NCBI GenBank assembly: GCA_900543825.1
Contig: UQSR01000005.1
Location: forward strand, 11,122-75,121
Source of the DNA: an uncultured Mycoplasmatota bacterium
Lineage (GTDB): Bacteria; Bacillota_I; Bacilli_A; RF39; UBA660
Length of the DNA: 64,000 nucleotides
Direction of reading: 5' to 3'
Part shown: positions 26,983 to 36,926 of the stretch, in pieces
Layout of the letters: each line of letters opens with the position of its first letter
Numbering within the stretch: the stretch's first letter is position 1
Made by a program: the position numbers and the translations under genes
Notes under the pieces: model-generated
The model's input: only the letters and a program-made list of their open reading frames with translations
What the model was told of the DNA's origin: nothing
The model's database searches: none

Positions 26983-28641
26983 TTAAAGCTGCTCTATTTT
27001 TGTTATTCTTTCTTTTATTCTATCTTTACCTAGTAATCTCATTATTTCATATAAGTCTGGTGTCATACTTTTTGTTGTTAGTGCTACTCTTATTACTGTT
27101 GATATGTCTGCTACGCTTCCTTTATACTTATCTGGATTTTCTTTGTATTCTTTCATATTACTGCAATAGCCTAGTTCGTCTGTCATGTCTTTGATATTGT
27201 TAAACCATGCTTCTTTGTCGGTAATATTGAAATATTTTTGCATATATGTTCTTAGTATCTTAATGATTTCATTTTTATCGTCAATTTTTCCCCATTCATA
27301 TGAGGTTGGATTGTATAATTCGTCATACATATAGAATATTTGACTTTTTATATCACTATAGCAGGAATAGTCTTTTCTAGGCTTTTTCTGTTCTCTTTCT
27401 ATGTTTAGTACGTTTTTTGTGTAATCTTCATATTTTACTAGTAGATTATTAAATTCTTTATCATATTCTTTGCTCCAATTTACTAAATTAGTATATACTT
27501 CGTCCTTAGTCATTTTACTAATGTAATTTTTAGATATGTTATTTAATTTTTCTAAATCATATAAAGCTCCTGATGGAGACATTTTTTTGGGAGAAAAATT
27601 AAAATCTAAGAAATTTTTGTCTGGATTAGCGGCATGCCATTCTTCGTAATTGGAATTAATTATTGTCATCAATGATTCTATTACTGCAATTGTAGGATAT
27701 CCTTTTTCTTTATAATAACTCATACTTGCTTCTGGGTCTTTTCTTTTGCTTATTTTTCTTTTGATTTCACCATCTTGCTTTAATATCAGTGGGGTGTGAA
27801 TGTATTTAGGTGGTTTTAAGCCTAATGCTTTAAACATTTCTAGATGTTTAGTTACGCTTGGTAGCCATTCCTCTCCTCTTACTACATGCGTAGTGTGCAT
27901 TAGATGGTCATCTACTACATGAGCAAAATGATAAGTTGGAAGCATGGTATCGCTTTTCATAATTACATCATCTATGTCATTTTCACTTAAACTTAGTTTT
28001 CCTTTTGATAGGTCTTCAAAAATTATTTTATTGTTAAAATTGCCTTCTGATTTGAATCTAATGACATAGCTTTCGCCATTTTTTATTCTTGTAATTGCTT
28101 CCTCTATGCTAATACTTCTACATTTAGCAAATCTACCATAGTAACCTGTTCTCATTTTTTTTTCTTCTTGATTTTTTCTCAATTCTTCTAGTGTTTCTTT
28201 TTTACAAAAGCATGGATATGCTCTACCTATTTCAATTAATCTTTTTATGTAAGCGTGATATATTTCTATTCTTTCACTTTGAATATATGGTCCATAATTG
28301 CCTACTATTTTATCCTTATACTCATATTCATCGGGCATAAGATTATATTCTTTCAATGTTTTTATTATTAATTCAATGGCAGAATCTACTTCTCTTGTTT
28401 TGTCGGTGTCTTCATTTCTTAAATAAAATACTCCATTTGTATTTTTTGCAATAATATAATCTGTAAGTGCTTGATAAAATCCTCCTATATGCATAAATCC
28501 TGTTGGACTAGGAGCAAATCTTGTTACTTTCGCGCCTTCCTTTAAATTTCTTTCTGGATACATTTTTTCATAATCTTCTATTGTTTTGGTAACATCAGGA
28601 AATAATAATTCTGCTAAGTCCTTATTTGTCATTTTTTTCAC
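26983..28641 (-). CDS. gltX: Glutamate--tRNA ligase family protein (class I, long 552-aa form)
   Basis: RFAPSPTGFMHIGG (HIGH-type) and KISKRK (KMSKS-type) motifs, and RNEDTD. It is longer than typical bacterial GluRS, so substrate tRNA (Glu vs Gln, discriminating or not) cannot be told from sequence. Confidence 0.75.
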   Translation of the reverse strand: MKKMTNKDLAELLFPDVTKTIEDYEKMYPERNLKEGAKVTRFAPSPTGFMHIGGFYQALTDYIIAKNTNGVFYLRNEDTDKTREVDSAIELIIKTLKEYNLMPDEYEYKDKIVGNYGPYIQSERIEIYHAYIKRLIEIGRAYPCFCKKETLEELRKNQEEKKMRTGYYGRFAKCRSISIEEAITRIKNGESYVIRFKSEGNFNNKIIFEDLSKGKLSLSENDIDDVIMKSDTMLPTYHFAHVVDDHLMHTTHVVRGEEWLPSVTKHLEMFKALGLKPPKYIHTPLILKQDGEIKRKISKRKDPEASMSYYKEKGYPTIAVIESLMTIINSNYEEWHAANPDKNFLDFNFSPKKMSPSGALYDLEKLNNISKNYISKMTKDEVYTNLVNWSKEYDKEFNNLLVKYEDYTKNVLNIEREQKKPRKDYSCYSDIKSQIFYMYDELYNPTSYEWGKIDDKNEIIKILRTYMQKYFNITDKEAWFNNIKDMTDELGYCSNMKEYKENPDKYKGSVADISTVIRVALTTKSMTPDLYEIMRLLGKDRIKERITKIEQL

Positions 28642-28724
28642 CTCGTTTTTTATTTTATTAGGTATACACTATATTCATTATTATTATAGTTAAATATAAT
28701 ATATTGAAAGGAGAACAGATTAAC

Positions 28725-28871
28725 ATGTATGGTTGTGGATACCCTTCTTATGGATATAGCTATGGCGCTAATGGTTTTTGGATAATCATCGTCGTACTTA
28801 TAATATTCTTCATATTATTCTGGAACAATGGTTCTTGTGGCTGCGGCTGTGGTCAAAGATGTTGCAAATAA
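28725..28871 (+). CDS. Unannotated YjcZ-like tiny Cys/Gly/Tyr-rich transmembrane sporulation-type peptide (48 aa)
   Basis: AAAGGAGA RBS 9 nt before the ATG. Peptide MYGCGYPSYGYSYGANGFWIIIVVLIIFFILFWNNGSCGCGCGQRCCK, followed by a terminator. Confidence 0.55.
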   Translation: MYGCGYPSYGYSYGANGFWIIIVVLIIFFILFWNNGSCGCGCGQRCCK

Positions 28872-28887
28872 TAACTATATCAAAATA

Positions 28888-28916
28888 AAGCCCTTTTGAA
28901 GGGCTATTTTTATTTA
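28888..28916 (+). terminator. Bidirectional rho-independent terminator (small peptide gene on plus, tRNA-Gln on minus)
   Basis: AGCCCTT-TTG-AAGGGCT hairpin followed by TATTTTTATTT on plus; on the minus strand the same hairpin is followed by TTATTTTG directly after the tRNA 3' end. Confidence 0.65.
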
Positions 28917-28917
28917 G

Positions 28918-28992
28918 TGGTTGCCCTGGTTAGATTCGAACTAACGCGTGCTAGAGTCAGAGTCTAGAGCCTTACCACTTGGCTACAGGGCA
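28918..28992 (-). tRNA. tRNA-Gln with anticodon CUG
   Basis: Minus-strand sequence TGCCCTGTAGCCAAGTGGTAAGGCTCTAGACTCTGACTCTAGCACGCGTTAGTTCGAATCTAACCAGGGCAACCA. U1-A72 start typical of tRNA-Gln, anticodon loop CT-CTG-AC, T-loop TTCGAAT, encoded CCA. Confidence 0.8.
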
Positions 28993-29103
28993 GTTACTGA
29001 TATAATTATAGCATCTAATTTTTAATTATTCAAGTTTTTTTCATTTATCTGCTTATTTTTCTAGTTGTCTATACTTGCTTCTGCTATAATTATATCAGTA
29101 ACT
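28992..29103. repeat. Perfect 21-bp inverted repeat (AGTTACTGATATAATTATAGC / GCTATAATTATATCAGTAACT) flanking a 70-bp AT-rich spacer
   Basis: Arms at 28992-29012 and 29083-29103 are exact reverse complements. The left arm begins at the first nucleotide upstream of tRNA-Gln position 1 and contains its -10 box. The right arm abuts the structured region 3' of tnpB. Confidence 0.6.
29005..29033 (-). promoter_or_regulatory. Near-consensus sigma-A promoter for tRNA-Gln
   Basis: Minus strand: TTGAAT (29028-29033), 17-nt spacer, TATAAT (29005-29010), 12 nt before the tRNA 5' end. Confidence 0.5.
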
Positions 29104-30397
29104 CTCCCCGAATAAAGTGCAAATTGTTTGCACCATCACTTCACAGTGATGAATTTCTGTTTCTTGGAAACTACACTTAGCTTCGTCCACAGACTTAAAT
29201 TCCGATAAGTGCTACCGTACTTTATTTTTACTTTAAAGAAATTTTGTTCGTTATTGACATTCATTATTGATACCTGGAATATACTTTCTTCATATATAAT
29301 TTTAGCCCTTCAAACATGATATTTATACTTGCATTTAAATCTCTATCTAATGTGTTTTTGCAACATTGGCATACATAGTCTCTCTCATTTAAGTTCTTGT
29401 ATTTTTTATCTATATTATCACAAACACTACAGGTTTGACTTGATGGATAGTAGGTATTTATTTTGAAAAAGTATTTACCTTTTTCTTTAGACTTGTATTC
29501 TAGTTGTTTTAGTATTTCTCTAAATGTTGCATCATTTATTTTTTTTGATAGATTTATGTTTTTGTCCATAATCATTTTTTTAATATTTAATGATTCGGTA
29601 ATTATTATATCATAATTATCGGTTATTTCTTTTGTTATTTTATGAATGTAGTATTTTCTGGCATTGGATAATTTGCTATAGAGTTTATTTAATCTTTTTA
29701 AATTTTTGTAATAGTTTTGACTTCCTTTATTCTTTTTGGATAATTTATAGTGTTCTCTTTTTATTTGTTCTTCGTATTTATTTATATATTTGTTATTATC
29801 ATACGATGTATTATCTGACATTGTTATTAGTTTCTTTATTCCTAAATCTATTCCTACTATTGTATTTGGTTTTCTTTTTGATGGTTCTGGCAATTCATAT
29901 AATATACTCACATAATATTTGCTATTTTTATCTTTCGATATTGTTACGTTTGTTATTTTGCCATTTATTTTGGTGATATTTCTATAGCCTCTTATTTTTA
30001 ATTCTTCTAATTCTGGTAATTTTATTGTTCTACTAATTAAATCTAATTCTATATTACAGTATTTATTGTAAATAGCTTTAATTGTATAACTATTTTTACC
30101 ATATTTGCTTCGATATTTTGGATTACTAATTCCACTGTTGAGATGTCTTTTATAATTATCTTGTAGATTGAATATTGTTTTCTTGATAAGCAATGGATTG
30201 GCTTCTAGTAAGAAAGGATATTCATATTTTAATTTATTTGTATAATCTTTAATACAAGAATAGGCGTTTATATATCCTTCGCTAATTATTTTTCTAAGAT
30301 AATAATTATATACAAATCTATTACATCCAAAAGTTTTATTTAGTTTTTGTTTTTGTGTGTCACTTGGATATATTCTAAATTTATATGCTTTATACAT
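29104..30397 (-). mobile_element. IS200/IS605-family tnpB-only element (IS1341-like); boundaries approximate
   Basis: Intact tnpB with a structured ~160-nt 3' region (hairpins GTGCAAA..TTTGCAC, CATCACT..AGTGATG, GTTTC..GAAAC), typical of an omega-RNA scaffold. No Y1 (HUH) tnpA is present. Confidence 0.4.
29264..30397 (-). CDS. tnpB: RNA-guided endonuclease TnpB (OrfB, IS200/IS605 family)
   Basis: MYKAYKFRIYPS...QKQKL..FGC.RFVYN N-terminus; split RuvC residues (IVGIDLG D, IIITESL E, DRDLNASINI D); C-terminal Zn finger CSVCDN...CQCCKN; 377 aa. Confidence 0.85.
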   Translation of the reverse strand: MYKAYKFRIYPSDTQKQKLNKTFGCNRFVYNYYLRKIISEGYINAYSCIKDYTNKLKYEYPFLLEANPLLIKKTIFNLQDNYKRHLNSGISNPKYRSKYGKNSYTIKAIYNKYCNIELDLISRTIKLPELEELKIRGYRNITKINGKITNVTISKDKNSKYYVSILYELPEPSKRKPNTIVGIDLGIKKLITMSDNTSYDNNKYINKYEEQIKREHYKLSKKNKGSQNYYKNLKRLNKLYSKLSNARKYYIHKITKEITDNYDIIITESLNIKKMIMDKNINLSKKINDATFREILKQLEYKSKEKGKYFFKINTYYPSSQTCSVCDNIDKKYKNLNERDYVCQCCKNTLDRDLNASINIMFEGLKLYMKKVYSRYQ

Positions 30398-30409
30398 TAT
30401 TTCACCGCC

Positions 30410-30940
30410 TTATATTTGCTTGTTTATTAAATTAATTAGATTTTTTCTCTCTTCAGGAGTTAATAATTCTAACATTTTATCATAATTATCTAATACATTT
30501 ACATTGATAATATTTAAAGGACTTTTTAGTACTATTCCTTCTTTGTTCTTTAATATTAATTTTGCTACTTCTTTTGTGTTAAATATATCTAGGTTTATGA
30601 TTGCATGTGTACTTGAGAATAATTCTTCGTTTTCTAATTTTAGTTTGGTTATTTCTTCAAATAGATCATAGTATGTTCTAAGTACATAATCTATTTTATC
30701 AAAGTTTTCATTTATTCCTAAACTGAAGAATTGATTTTTATTTACTCTTATTAGGTAATTATTATTTATGGTGTTGTCTACTATATGGCTTCTTATTTCT
30801 TTTATATAGATGTCTCCTTCTACTAAAATGATATTGTGTTTAGATAAAATGTGGTTTAGGAATTTATATATGATTTTTCTATCTAGTTCTTTGTTTGTTA
30901 TGACTTTATTAAATATTTGTATTATTTTAATAGTATCCAT
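30410..30940 (-). CDS. Hypothetical 176-aa protein immediately upstream of tnpB (not a recognisable transposase)
   Basis: Same strand, 12 nt upstream of tnpB; lacks HUH/Tyr or serine-recombinase motifs. Confidence 0.4.
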   Translation of the reverse strand: MDTIKIIQIFNKVITNKELDRKIIYKFLNHILSKHNIILVEGDIYIKEIRSHIVDNTINNNYLIRVNKNQFFSLGINENFDKIDYVLRTYYDLFEEITKLKLENEELFSSTHAIINLDIFNTKEVAKLILKNKEGIVLKSPLNIINVNVLDNYDKMLELLTPEERKNLINLINKQI

Positions 30941-31104
30941 TTTTTCCTCCTTGCAATGATAATAGCAGATTTGATTTAATTATGCAAATGGGGTAAAAAG
31001 GTATTTTGTGAATGTTTTTTCTGGTATAAAGTTATTTTTAATGTGTTAAAAATATATTTTGGCTGTTATTAATGGTATAAAAAGTTATTTTGATTAAATT
31101 TTAT

Positions 31105-31143
31105 TTTTTTAAAAAAATGAATCTCATATATTTGAGATTCATT
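31105..31143 (-). terminator. Rho-independent terminator of leuS
   Basis: 11-bp stem AATGAATCTCA-TATATT-TGAGATTCATT five nt after the leuS stop; the minus strand continues with TTTTTAAAAAAA. Confidence 0.7.
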
Positions 31144-31147
31144 ATGT

Positions 31148-33559
31148 TTATTTTATAACAATATTTACTATTCTTCCTGGTACTACGATAACCTTTACTA
31201 CTTTTTTGTTTTCAATCCACTTTTTTATGTTTTCTCTTGATAGTGCTGTTTTTTCTAATTCTTCTTTTGAAGTATTTATGTTTATTTTGATGGTATCTCT
31301 TACTTTACCATTTACTTGAATAGCTATTTCTTTTTCTTGATCTTCTGTTTTGGCTTCATCATATTTTGGCCATGGTCTATTGCAAATTGGTTCATATCCT
31401 ATAGTTTCATTTAATTCTTCTGTTATATGTGGAGCAATTGGATTTAGTAGTTCTAGTAATATTCTATAATCGCCTTTGGTAATATGCTCTTTTTCGTCAT
31501 AAGTATTTAATAGAATCATTAGTGTTGATACTGCTGTATTGTAGGCCATGTGAGTTAGGTCGTGTTCAACTTTTTTGATACTTTTGTTGATAATCACTTC
31601 TAGGTCTTTAGAATATTCATCATTATCTGTGACTTTATCTTTTAGTCTTACTATTCTATCAACAAATCTTTTGCATCCTTTAAGTGAGTCTGTGCTCCAT
31701 GGTGCATCTTGTGTATAGTCACCCATAAACATTTCGTATATTCTTAAGGCATCTGCTCCATATCCGTTTACTATTTCGTCTGGATTTATTACATTGCCTT
31801 TACTTTTACTCATTTTTTCGTTATTAGAGCCTAATATCATTCCGTGGCTTACTCTGGTCCAAATCATTTCTTTATGTGGTACTAAGCCAAAGTTGTATAG
31901 CATCTGTACCCAGAATCTAGCATATAATAGATGTCTAGCTGTATGTTCCATGCCACCGTCATACCAATCTACTCTGTTCCAATATTTCATTACATCCATA
32001 TTAGCAAATTCTTTGTTATTGTGTGGATCCATAAATCTTAGGAAATACCATGATGAACCAGCCCAGTTAGGCATTGTATCGGTTTCTCTTCTGGCAGGGC
32101 CTCCGCAACAAGGACAAGTTGTATTTACCCATTCATCGATCTTTGCTAATGGGCTTTCACCGTTTTCAGTTGGTTCGTATTCTGCAACATTTGGAAGAAG
32201 TAGTGGTAAATCTTTTTCTTCCATAGGTTGCCAGCCACATTTTTCGCAATAAATCATTGGAATTGGTTCCCCCCAGAATCTTTGTCTTGAGAAAATCCAA
32301 TCTCTCATTTTATAGTTATTTACTCTTCTTCCAATACCTAGTTTTTCTAGTTTTTTAGTAATGGCTTCTTTGGCTTCTTCCACTGTCATACCGGTGAATT
32401 CTTCGGAATTTATAAGTTTGCAATTTTTTCCTAAATAATCATATTTTTCAAAAGCTTTAGTTGAGATGTCTCCTCCGGATATTACTTCTATCATATCTAA
32501 GTTATGGGCTTTCATGTATTCATAATCTCTTTGGTCATGAGCTGGAACGGCCATTACTGCACCGGTACCATAGTCGCCTAAAACGAAGTCTCCTATAAAT
32601 ACTGGTACTTCTTTACCATTTACTGGATTAATTGCTTTAATTCCTTTTAATTCTACACCTGTTTTTCCTTTATTTAATTCTGTTCTATCCATATTAGATT
32701 TATGTGATGTTGCTTCTATATAAGATAAAACTTCATCTTTATTTTCTACTCTTGGTAATAGTTCTTTCATTAGTTTTCCGTCTGGAGCTATTACAAAGAA
32801 TGTTATACCATATACTGTTTCAATACATGTGGTAAATACTGAGAAAGATCCTCCTCCTACAACATTTACATCCAACTCAACGCCGGTTGATTTGCCTATC
32901 CAATTGATTTGTCCTAATTTTACTCTTTCAGCAAAATTTGTGTCATCAAGTCCTTTTAATAAATCTTCAGCATAATCGGACATTCTAAGCATCCATTGGG
33001 ATTTTTCTTTTTGAACAACGCTACTGCCACATCTTTCACACACGCCACCAGCGGCATCTTCGTTGGAAAGTACGGTTTTGCATGTTGGGCACCAATTTAC
33101 TGGTATTGTTGCTTTATAGGCCATATTGTGTTTGTAAAATTGCAAGAATTGCCATTGTGTCCATTTATAATATTCTGGATCGGTAGTAGAAAATTCTCTA
33201 CTCCAATCAAATGAAAATCCAAGTCTTTTCATTTGGCCTTTAAATGTTTTTATATTTTCTTTTACGGCGTCTTTGGGATGAATATGATTTTTTATGGCAT
33301 ATTGTTCTGCTGGTGCTCCGAATGCATCCCATCCCATTGGATATAAAACGTTATATCCTTGTCTTCTTTTCATTCTAGCTATAGCGTCTTGTGCTGTATA
33401 GCCTCTAACGTGGCCTACATGTAGTCCACTTCCTGATGGATATGGAAATTCTACTAGAATGTAATATGGTTTTTTGTTGCTCTCGTTTTGTGCTTCAAAA
33501 ACATGATTATTTTCCCAGTACTCTTGCCATTTTTTTTCTATTTTTTTGAAATTATACAT
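31148..33559 (-). CDS. leuS: Leucine--tRNA ligase
   Basis: 803 aa. Has HVGH (HIGH), the CP1 editing domain and KMSKS (EKMSKSKGNV), with an MYNFKKIEKKWQEYW N-terminus. Confidence 0.9.
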   Translation of the reverse strand: MYNFKKIEKKWQEYWENNHVFEAQNESNKKPYYILVEFPYPSGSGLHVGHVRGYTAQDAIARMKRRQGYNVLYPMGWDAFGAPAEQYAIKNHIHPKDAVKENIKTFKGQMKRLGFSFDWSREFSTTDPEYYKWTQWQFLQFYKHNMAYKATIPVNWCPTCKTVLSNEDAAGGVCERCGSSVVQKEKSQWMLRMSDYAEDLLKGLDDTNFAERVKLGQINWIGKSTGVELDVNVVGGGSFSVFTTCIETVYGITFFVIAPDGKLMKELLPRVENKDEVLSYIEATSHKSNMDRTELNKGKTGVELKGIKAINPVNGKEVPVFIGDFVLGDYGTGAVMAVPAHDQRDYEYMKAHNLDMIEVISGGDISTKAFEKYDYLGKNCKLINSEEFTGMTVEEAKEAITKKLEKLGIGRRVNNYKMRDWIFSRQRFWGEPIPMIYCEKCGWQPMEEKDLPLLLPNVAEYEPTENGESPLAKIDEWVNTTCPCCGGPARRETDTMPNWAGSSWYFLRFMDPHNNKEFANMDVMKYWNRVDWYDGGMEHTARHLLYARFWVQMLYNFGLVPHKEMIWTRVSHGMILGSNNEKMSKSKGNVINPDEIVNGYGADALRIYEMFMGDYTQDAPWSTDSLKGCKRFVDRIVRLKDKVTDNDEYSKDLEVIINKSIKKVEHDLTHMAYNTAVSTLMILLNTYDEKEHITKGDYRILLELLNPIAPHITEELNETIGYEPICNRPWPKYDEAKTEDQEKEIAIQVNGKVRDTIKININTSKEELEKTALSRENIKKWIENKKVVKVIVVPGRIVNIVIK

Positions 33560-36880: not shown

Positions 36881-36926
36881 TATCTTACTGATATAATAAT
36901 ATCATAATTAACTAAAAAGTGCAATA

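Follow-up and report, generated by a model that had tools for sequence, protein, structure and literature searches.

Genes encoding TnpB are extremely abundant. TnpB proteins of the ISDra2 type (insertion sequence (IS) group IS200/IS605; structures 8exa, 8bf8 and 8h1j) have a three-domain architecture with a RuvC D/E/D triad and a zinc ribbon, and directly 3′ of their genes lie a right-end RNA scaffold and then a guide derived from the flanking DNA. Here, we describe a locus of the same organization in 64,000 nt of DNA (the whole stretch analysed, hereafter the window) from an uncultured Mycoplasmatota bacterium (contig UQSR01000005.1 of assembly GCA_900543825.1), where a tnpB gene and its putative omega-RNA region lie between orf176, an open reading frame (ORF) of 176 amino acids (aa), and a tRNA-Gln gene. 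Unlike ISDra2, the window TnpB, which is ~30% identical to it, has no TnpA nearby and neither a left end nor the side carrying the transposon-associated motif (TAM); it occupies one fixed, vertically inherited site, and its gene is probably expressed from the promoter of a host gene. We consider it probable that the locus is a module of TnpB and omega-RNA, situated behind an unrelated host gene, that was immobilized anciently, has been inherited vertically and apparently still functions.

Other described systems share further traits with this locus. IS1341-like TnpB-only elements in gut Bacilli, RF39-like and Mollicute-like metagenome-assembled genomes (MAGs; loci L017–L086) belong to the same size class, encode TnpB proteins that are 45–72% identical to the one in the window, and have the scaffold consensus GTACGGTAGCGACTATCGGAATTTAAG ... 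CTTTTGTTC in common with it. Unlike the window locus, they keep a left end of 110–170 nt, a T-rich TAM and an internal promoter, and are present in repeated copies at various sites, most often with a terminator T-tract on one side and the next promoter on the other. The immobilized, predicted-active TnpB clades of Altae-Tran et al. 2023 (PMC10691335) are similar in their low mobility, their preserved catalytic site and the lack of a consistent gene partner; unlike for those clades, the probable cause (a left-end deletion), age (dS up to 0.77) and selection regime could be worked out for the window locus. A keyword search of PMC10691335 found neither a promoter-mirroring guide region nor a mention of tRNA. 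In TldR systems (Wiegand et al.; 10.1101/2023.11.30.569447), as here, the transposon context is lost, the gene has a stable place by host genes, and the RNA 3′ of it has a guide-side sequence complementary to the −10 region of a nearby promoter; unlike in TldRs, the window protein is full length with an intact RuvC domain.

The 377-aa ORF scored above the Pfam cut-offs for HTH_OrfB_IS605 (PF12323), OrfB_IS605 (PF01385) and Cas12f1-like_TNB (PF07282), reached 262 bits against the NCBIfam model guided_TnpB (NF040570, cut-off 100), and also matched PHROG 506. The solved ISDra2 TnpB (8bf8/8exa) aligned with it over 363 residues (E 1e-48), pairing D184 (GIDLG), E268 (ITESL) and D353 (DRDLN) with the RuvC triad D191, E278 and D361 of ISDra2; the zinc site consists of CSVC and CQCC, i.e., two CxxC pairs. 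The triad is kept in 13 of 13 distinct alleles and in the diverged lineages L132 and L133. Thus, as judged from its residues, the ORF encodes a TnpB of full length whose catalytic site is intact. The genes flanking tnpB are not of the Y1/HUH type, and scanning the 64-kb window with a crude HUH...Y regular expression, which is a weak test, gave no candidate.

We fetched ~80 loci encoding TnpB relatives and aligned their 3′ flanks. The segment 29110–29222 of the window aligned with the flanks of ~40 of them, and RNAalifold detected compensatory double changes in 8 of 15 predicted pairs, spread over two stems. The conserved block starts ~40 nt past the tnpB stop codon (GTACGGTAGC-N3-TATCGGAATTTAAG...) and ends in a small hairpin followed by CTTTTGTTC, whose counterpart in the window is ...CTTTATTC. 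Further small hairpins 3′ of tnpB include CATCACT-GTGA-AGTGATG and TGCAAA-CAA-TTTGCA. A covariance model trained on the family found one copy in the 64-kb window, again at 29110–29222 (79.8 bits; the window sequence was part of the training set), and an Rfam scan of positions 28000–32000 returned the tRNA and no omega-RNA family. Homology between copies of the same IS in different genomic contexts ends exactly after TTGTTC; therefore, we take 29222–29110 as the scaffold and let the guide begin at 29109, also in keeping with the established biology of TnpB, in which the guide directly follows the scaffold. This segment is the omega-RNA scaffold of TnpB as far as can be read from sequence alone. 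The guide slot has no further match with fewer than three mismatches in the rest of the window. A phage target was considered and rejected: the number of IMG/VR matches of a 16-mer, 19, is no more than chance would give, none of them lies next to a T-rich TAM and none extends further. Two relatives (L021:2277-2370 and L022:444-540) carry a second, TnpB-less scaffold copy of ~95 nt that lies ~630 nt upstream of tnpB and is probably the remnant of an earlier insertion.

Much of what the initial annotation had read directly from the window was borne out. It had described a solo TnpB without a Y1 HUH transposase, with all RuvC D/E/D residues and the Zn finger, both of which the ISDra2 alignment confirmed; it had noticed at least three perfect small hairpins and no ORF 3′ of tnpB and placed the omega-RNA there, where the scaffold is now seen conserved with covariation in ~40 relatives; the covariance-model search that it proposed gave the single match mentioned, from a model built on the family with the window included; and the neighbourhood of tRNA-Gln and leuS that it named is confirmed on the minus strand (Table 1).

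Its description of an intact element did not hold. The mobile relatives are TnpB-only units of 1.38–1.42 kb. On the right they terminate in CTTTTGTTC; on the left they begin at TTTTTT(A/G)T, which frequently belongs to the terminator T-tract of the gene upstream, and the left end includes an A(T/A)AGGAAAGT motif as well as a promoter of TTGACA type. At the window locus, the left-end motif of these relatives, TTTTAT-N4-5-A(T/A)AGGAAAGT, was not found, and IS-derived DNA ahead of the tnpB ATG amounts to only ~12 nt, ATAAGGCGGTGAAATA, a string that also supplies the orf176 stop codon. Within it, ATAAGGCGGTGA matches the IS-internal sequence just 5′ of the ATG in relatives, e.g., L025. The junction is identical in 17 of 17 loci. 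In the diverged lineages, the gap measures 11 nt in L131/L132, and in L133 the orf176 homologue and tnpB are separated by 62 nt left over from the proximal left end. Judged by these sequences, a deletion took the TAM, the cleavage site, the left-end hairpin and the promoter of tnpB itself. Looking for further copies, as the initial annotation had advised, thus defined the element's ends from those of its relatives, while the window locus holds the right end only. Of the marks of a mobile IS200/IS605 element, a left end with TAM is missing here, as are multiple copies or sites. The start of the left end at a T-tract in the relatives implies a T-rich TAM, and TTTAA and TTTAT have been reported as TAMs for relatives from Firmicutes (10.1101/2023.11.30.569447). 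As for the placement of the mobile relatives, left ends (L036, L046, L051, L060, L082, L086) show that insertion has usually taken place directly behind an intrinsic terminator's T-tract, and in several right flanks (among L027, L035, L041, L046, L050 and L082) an extended −10 box (TGnTATAAT) lies no more than a few nt from the right end; the elements are thus positioned between the terminator of one gene and the promoter of the next.

The window locus stays at one site. The same arrangement was found in L001–L006 and L016 (TnpB 90% identical), in L096 and L097, and in all 12 of the 12 metagenome contigs obtained via the tRNA-Gln promoter sequence, none of which has an empty-site allele. A protein search added deeper lineages at the same locus, with TnpB identities of 81% (L131/L132), 77% (L133) and, over the part present on a contig that ends inside the gene, 87% (L134). 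Altogether, the site is unchanged in ~30 contigs from at least four lineages, and the 64-kb window contains one tnpB copy. All 17 full tnpB ORFs, representing 13 alleles, are free of stop codons and frameshifts. The ratio of nonsynonymous to synonymous substitution rates (dN/dS) of tnpB was 0.18, 0.17 and 0.17 in comparison to L001, L132 and L133 (dS 0.27, 0.57 and 0.66) and 0.14–0.18 over all pairs, with dS up to 0.77; for comparison, it was 0.07 for leuS, 0.11 for the gltX-like gene and 0.15 for orf176. Hence, tnpB has been inherited vertically at one site through at least four diverged lineages, with its ORF, triad and scaffold under purifying selection. In PMC10691335, 89% of TnpB clusters are reported to be immobile, and some of the non-mobile clades are predicted to be active. 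Since immobile clusters are thus already known as common, predicted-active ones among them, the immobilized TnpB itself is a well-documented instance of a known category. A second case of a TnpB held at a single chromosomal site is a sister lineage (72% identical to the window TnpB) flanked by an ABC-transporter gene and uppS in two genomes that differ at the species level (L017:2998-4300 and L135:3001-4370; 85% protein identity to each other, dN/dS 0.19). In one further contig (L137:1-1750; ERZ1309180 NODE_16659, coverage 2.6x), the sequence is near-identical to the window over the end of orf176, the junction and ~290 nt at the start of tnpB, identity drops to ~70% from about window position 30110 on, the scaffold is different, and genes for a STAS protein and a sigma factor lie downstream; this contig reflects either a recombination event involving a second TnpB paralogue or a chimera made in assembly.

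We propose the following course of events. A non-autonomous TnpB-only element of IS200/IS605 type would have been placed between orf176 and the tRNA-Gln promoter, and a later deletion would have stripped its left end, TAM side and own promoter, thereby fusing tnpB 12 nt behind orf176. The minus strand has no terminator-like site from the promoter-like site at 30988-30959, which is the only predicted promoter now able to drive tnpB, down to 28905. Because no terminator intervenes, tnpB is probably expressed from the orf176 promoter, and the transcript would comprise orf176, tnpB and the omega-RNA and probably run on into tRNA-Gln. TnpB would then bind the scaffold 29222-29110 and form a ribonucleoprotein (RNP) with the frozen guide GGGGAGAGUUACUGAU... 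Such an RNP could cut only DNA in which a T-rich, TTTAT-like TAM is followed by the guide sequence, GGGGAGAGTTACTGAT. This substrate would be the unoccupied allele of the same locus; the resident chromosome has none. The likeliest activity would, therefore, be the ordinary one of TnpB, RNA-guided cutting of empty alleles, which would now only guard the locus against replacement by recombination. The inverted promoter copy at guide nt 7–28, described below, would add a cis element to the module.

Several points weigh against this proposal. Co-transcription, omega-RNA maturation and nuclease activity are all things that we infer from the sequence. An element without a left end or TnpA cannot excise; therefore, the classical retention role has no substrate, and selfish maintenance alone hardly accounts for long-term purifying selection. 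A hairpin of 22–27 bp predicted for a read-through RNA would bury the guide. The inferred TAM derives from relatives of just 45–60% identity, and the single-copy and no-TnpA results cover 64 kb of the genome. Finally, the same population may contain a second paralogue, to judge by the deviating contig L137.

The hairpin would result from an inverted repeat, by which the guide slot mirrors the tRNA-Gln promoter. After GGGGAG (guide nt 1–6), guide nt 7–28 (29103-29082) read AGTTACTGATATAATTATAGCA, the perfect reverse complement (22/22) of TGCTATAATTATATCAGTAACT at 29013-28992, with the two arms 68 nt apart; even allowing three mismatches, 0.03 such matches would be expected by chance in 64 kb. 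Read on the plus strand, arm A is a copy of the tRNA-Gln core promoter, TGcTATAAT-TATATCAGTAACT. The same tRNA-Gln promoter is present in L012, which lacks TnpB, and arm B thus belongs to the host. The 20-nt core of arm A has no polymorphism in 20 loci of the species, while its borders are polymorphic, with two segregating sites in the 6 nt before and six in the 15 nt after (background 0.02–0.05 per site). Arm A is also preserved 22/22 in L132 and 21/22 in L133, where tnpB synonymous sites differ by 40–44% from the window, an identity that would arise by chance with a probability of ~1e-5 each. No comparable inverted repeat between the right-end flank and downstream DNA was found in ~50 related TnpB loci; the repeat is, therefore, specific to this locus and not a trait of the family. 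The six TAM-proximal guide nucleotides vary by lineage (GGGGAG, TGGGAT, GGGTG), including a 2-nt indel. The repeat is a conserved cis feature, with roles as RNA hairpin, antisense promoter or anti-guide, or no function, all in play.

Inversion of the repeat-flanked promoter and an origin of arm A by IS insertion were considered and rejected. The arms do flank the −35 box of tRNA-Gln as in an invertible promoter, but all 20 aligned loci have the same orientation (assemblies give the majority orientation only). An inverted 68-bp spacer occurred in none of the 20 assemblies, and the L132 sequence past the arm is not the inverted spacer. If arm A came from an IS insertion into an inverted tRNA-Gln copy, the implied TAM would be GGCTA, which is not T-rich. 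Separately, we noticed two 13-mers in or near the spacer, at 29071-29083 (with 2 nt overlap with arm A) and 29050-29062, that are identical to 13-mers of the gltX-like gene 1.3 kb downstream; their counterparts in the KMSKS-loop region, 27722-27734 for 29071-29083 and 27747-27759 for 29050-29062, occur in swapped order. Each shared 13-mer is expected ~0.01 times by chance. The first, CAGAAGCAAGTAT, is confined to the window, L103 and L111; the majority allele is TAAGAACAAGTGT, with five linked differences in 12 nt, and the region looks like a templated patch.

Among the alternatives, it appears possible, at well below even chances, that arm A is essentially a cis element acting on the omega-RNA or the tRNA transcript. 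As an antisense promoter, it would be a second core promoter of tRNA-Gln that sends plus-strand transcription into the right end, giving a ~60-nt RNA antisense to the 3′ part of the scaffold and guide nt 1–12. This corresponds with the identity of the plus-strand sequence to the tRNA-Gln core promoter, with the recurrence of the motif TA(A/T)(A/T)AT-TATATCAGTAA at the −10 box of a third promoter (36885-36901), and with a terminator-like plus-strand hairpin at 29134-29151; however, arm A is without a good −35 box and absent from the promoter prediction list. As an RNA element, arm A would be one strand of the 22–27-bp hairpin in an orf176-tnpB-tRNA read-through transcript, either masking the guide or offering an RNase III site that parts the omega-RNA from pre-tRNA-Gln. 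The predicted free energy of −37.9 kcal/mol (z-score −7.8) is consistent with this, as is the helix reaching tRNA nt 2–6 in four of four lineages by way of different sequences on the right-end side. Three changes at the arm border are transitions that preserve G.U pairs in the sense RNA, although three of three wobble-compatible transitions make weak statistics. Both forms of the cis-element explanation face the same two objections: L132 differs past the arm and shows no tRNA-side arm within the 130 nt present there, and short inverted repeats may evolve in concert through template switching, which could hold the arms identical without any function. That the 22-nt mirror in one of these ways, as anti-guide or RNase III hairpin, as antisense promoter or as a TAM-independent guide–target pair, wires the TnpB-omega-RNA to tRNA-Gln is in our view doubtful, though it deserves mention: if true, the coupling would mean that a catalytically intact TnpB was domesticated in a way unlike TldRs.

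It is very unlikely that the locus is a non-functional relic, i.e., a dead IS fragment that has yet to decay. Its left end is lost, no TnpA lies nearby, and most TnpB clusters are immobile (PMC10691335), which speaks for a relic. A decaying locus is contradicted by tnpB dN/dS values of 0.14–0.18 (~0.15) at dS reaching 0.57–0.77 in at least four lineages, by 0 of 17 ORFs having a stop codon or frameshift, by catalytic residues kept in all 13 alleles as well as L132 and L133, and by the conserved scaffold.

We give still less credit to a TldR-like regulator, in which the 22-nt stretch would guide TnpB-omega-RNA to the tRNA-Gln promoter (−10 to +1) and tune tRNA-Gln transcription. The 22/22 complementarity does span the −10 box and the start region, the arm is kept across deep divergence, left-end loss and a fixed spot by host genes resemble TldR loci (10.1101/2023.11.30.569447), and a nuclease-competent TnpB can bind without cutting when given a short guide (PMC13507860). 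However, TldRs are defined by RuvC decay and the triad is intact in all lineages here; pairing begins only at guide nt 7, leaving the six seed positions (GGGGAG), which vary between lineages, unmatched; and the non-target-strand 5′ flank of the putative tRNA-Gln target, ...TACAGGGC, is not T-rich, as opposed to the TAM inferred for the family. With no T-rich TAM and a mismatched six-nt seed, unlike the targets of TldRs, a canonical TnpB/TldR guide–target pair at the tRNA-Gln promoter was rejected.

For orf176, the initial annotation had left the choice between an unrelated host gene, an accessory factor and the remnant of another mobile unit; the first stood and the other two fell. Homologues with 60–65% identity directly follow leuS in relatives without TnpB, in the order leuS-orf175-ezrA (L007–L011, L098) or leuS-orf172-...-tRNA-Gln-gltX (L012–L015), and orf176 neighbours none of the ~80 other TnpB relatives. 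The annotation had itself named what would speak against its association of the two, and that is what the relatives show: the element ends elsewhere and the 176-aa gene is not tied to it. Its observation that this ORF lies 12 nt upstream on the same strand, without transposase motifs, was correct; nothing significant was found in Pfam, NCBIfam or PHROGs, and an AlphaFold2 model of mediocre quality (mean predicted local distance difference test score 70) gave no significant fold match. The family is tiny, with 20 clusters among 5.8 billion proteins and 5 among 1.84 billion representatives in a profile search, which recovered only its own narrow family. By synteny and sequence, orf176 is a lineage-specific host gene, unrelated to TnpB and outside the IS. 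A role as TnpB partner (accessory factor, inhibitor or half of a toxin-antitoxin-like pair) is the least credible of the explanations considered, despite the co-orientation, the 12-nt gap and probable co-transcription in four lineages, since the gene is older than TnpB and occurs without it, the adjacency was apparently made by deletion (L133 keeps a 62-nt gap), and neither fold matches nor model quality lend it support. In TnpB-less L012 (6520-7650), the interval between the orf176 homologue and tRNA-Gln contains two partial copies of a short (Q/K)GI(E/K)QG-repeat gene and an N run; this interval is a variable spot.

Table 1. Features of the tnpB locus and its surroundings, in minus-strand order (window positions).
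Feature	Position	Strand	Basis or remark
leuS	31148-33559	-	ORF call; followed by its own terminator
Promoter-like site of orf176	30959..30988	-	TTTGCA-18-TATTAT with upstream TG
orf176, 176-aa ORF	30410..30940	-	Host gene, lineage-specific; syntenic with leuS in relatives lacking TnpB
Putative deletion junction between orf176 stop and tnpB ATG, 12 nt GGCGGTGAAATA including ribosome-binding site (RBS)	30398..30409	-	
tnpB, 377 aa	29264..30397	-	RuvC D184/E268/D353 triad and zinc ribbon intact
Predicted omega-RNA scaffold, the IS right end	29110..29222	-	Alignments, covariation, covariance-model match
Putative guide slot of omega-RNA, GGGGAGAGTTACTGATATAA, first 20 nt past scaffold	29090..29109	-	Placed from the right-end boundary
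Inverted-repeat arm A, minus-strand AGTTACTGATATAATTATAGCA	29082..29103		22/22 complementary to 28992-29013
68-nt spacer between the arms	29014..29081	-	Holds the tRNA-Gln −35 box TTGAAT at 29028-29033
Inverted-repeat arm B: tRNA-Gln extended −10 TGCTATAAT, leader and tRNA nt 1	28992..29013	-	
tRNA-Gln (CTG)	28918..28992	-	ARAGORN; Rfam tRNA match, 65 bits
Intrinsic terminator past tRNA-Gln	28889..28905	-	First minus-strand terminator downstream of orf176
GluRS-type gene, here called gltX	26983-28641	-	Next minus-strand gene past the terminator

The region is AT-rich, with a G+C content of 21–25% in orf176 and tnpB, and ~270 nt of non-coding DNA separate tnpB from tRNA-Gln. Among public genomes, the nearest are MAGs from the human gut with the label 'uncultured Bacilli'. 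A 55-aa ORF (28704-28871, +), also present in L012, lies on the opposite strand between the terminator of tRNA-Gln and the gltX-like gene; its product is rich in Gly, Tyr and Cys, and the core is hydrophobic (MKGEQINMYGCGYPSYGYSYG...CGCGCGQRCCK). The third copy of TA(A/T)(A/T)AT-TATATCAGTAA (36885-36901, −) directly precedes the RBS and start codon (ATG) of a small, membrane-like ORF beside a GH31 gene and is conserved in L001; it may be a shared promoter or initial-transcribed motif, or an operator.

New here is the conserved 22-nt mirror of the tRNA-Gln promoter in the guide slot of an immobilized TnpB. The locus offers a clean natural case for the question why intact immobile TnpB copies persist, with a visible cause, a measurable age, clear selection and a frozen guide. 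If the mirror is non-functional, it is an ordinary immobilized TnpB. If the mirror is functional, it would represent a route of TnpB domestication that keeps the nuclease and links a transposon RNA to the expression of a core tRNA.

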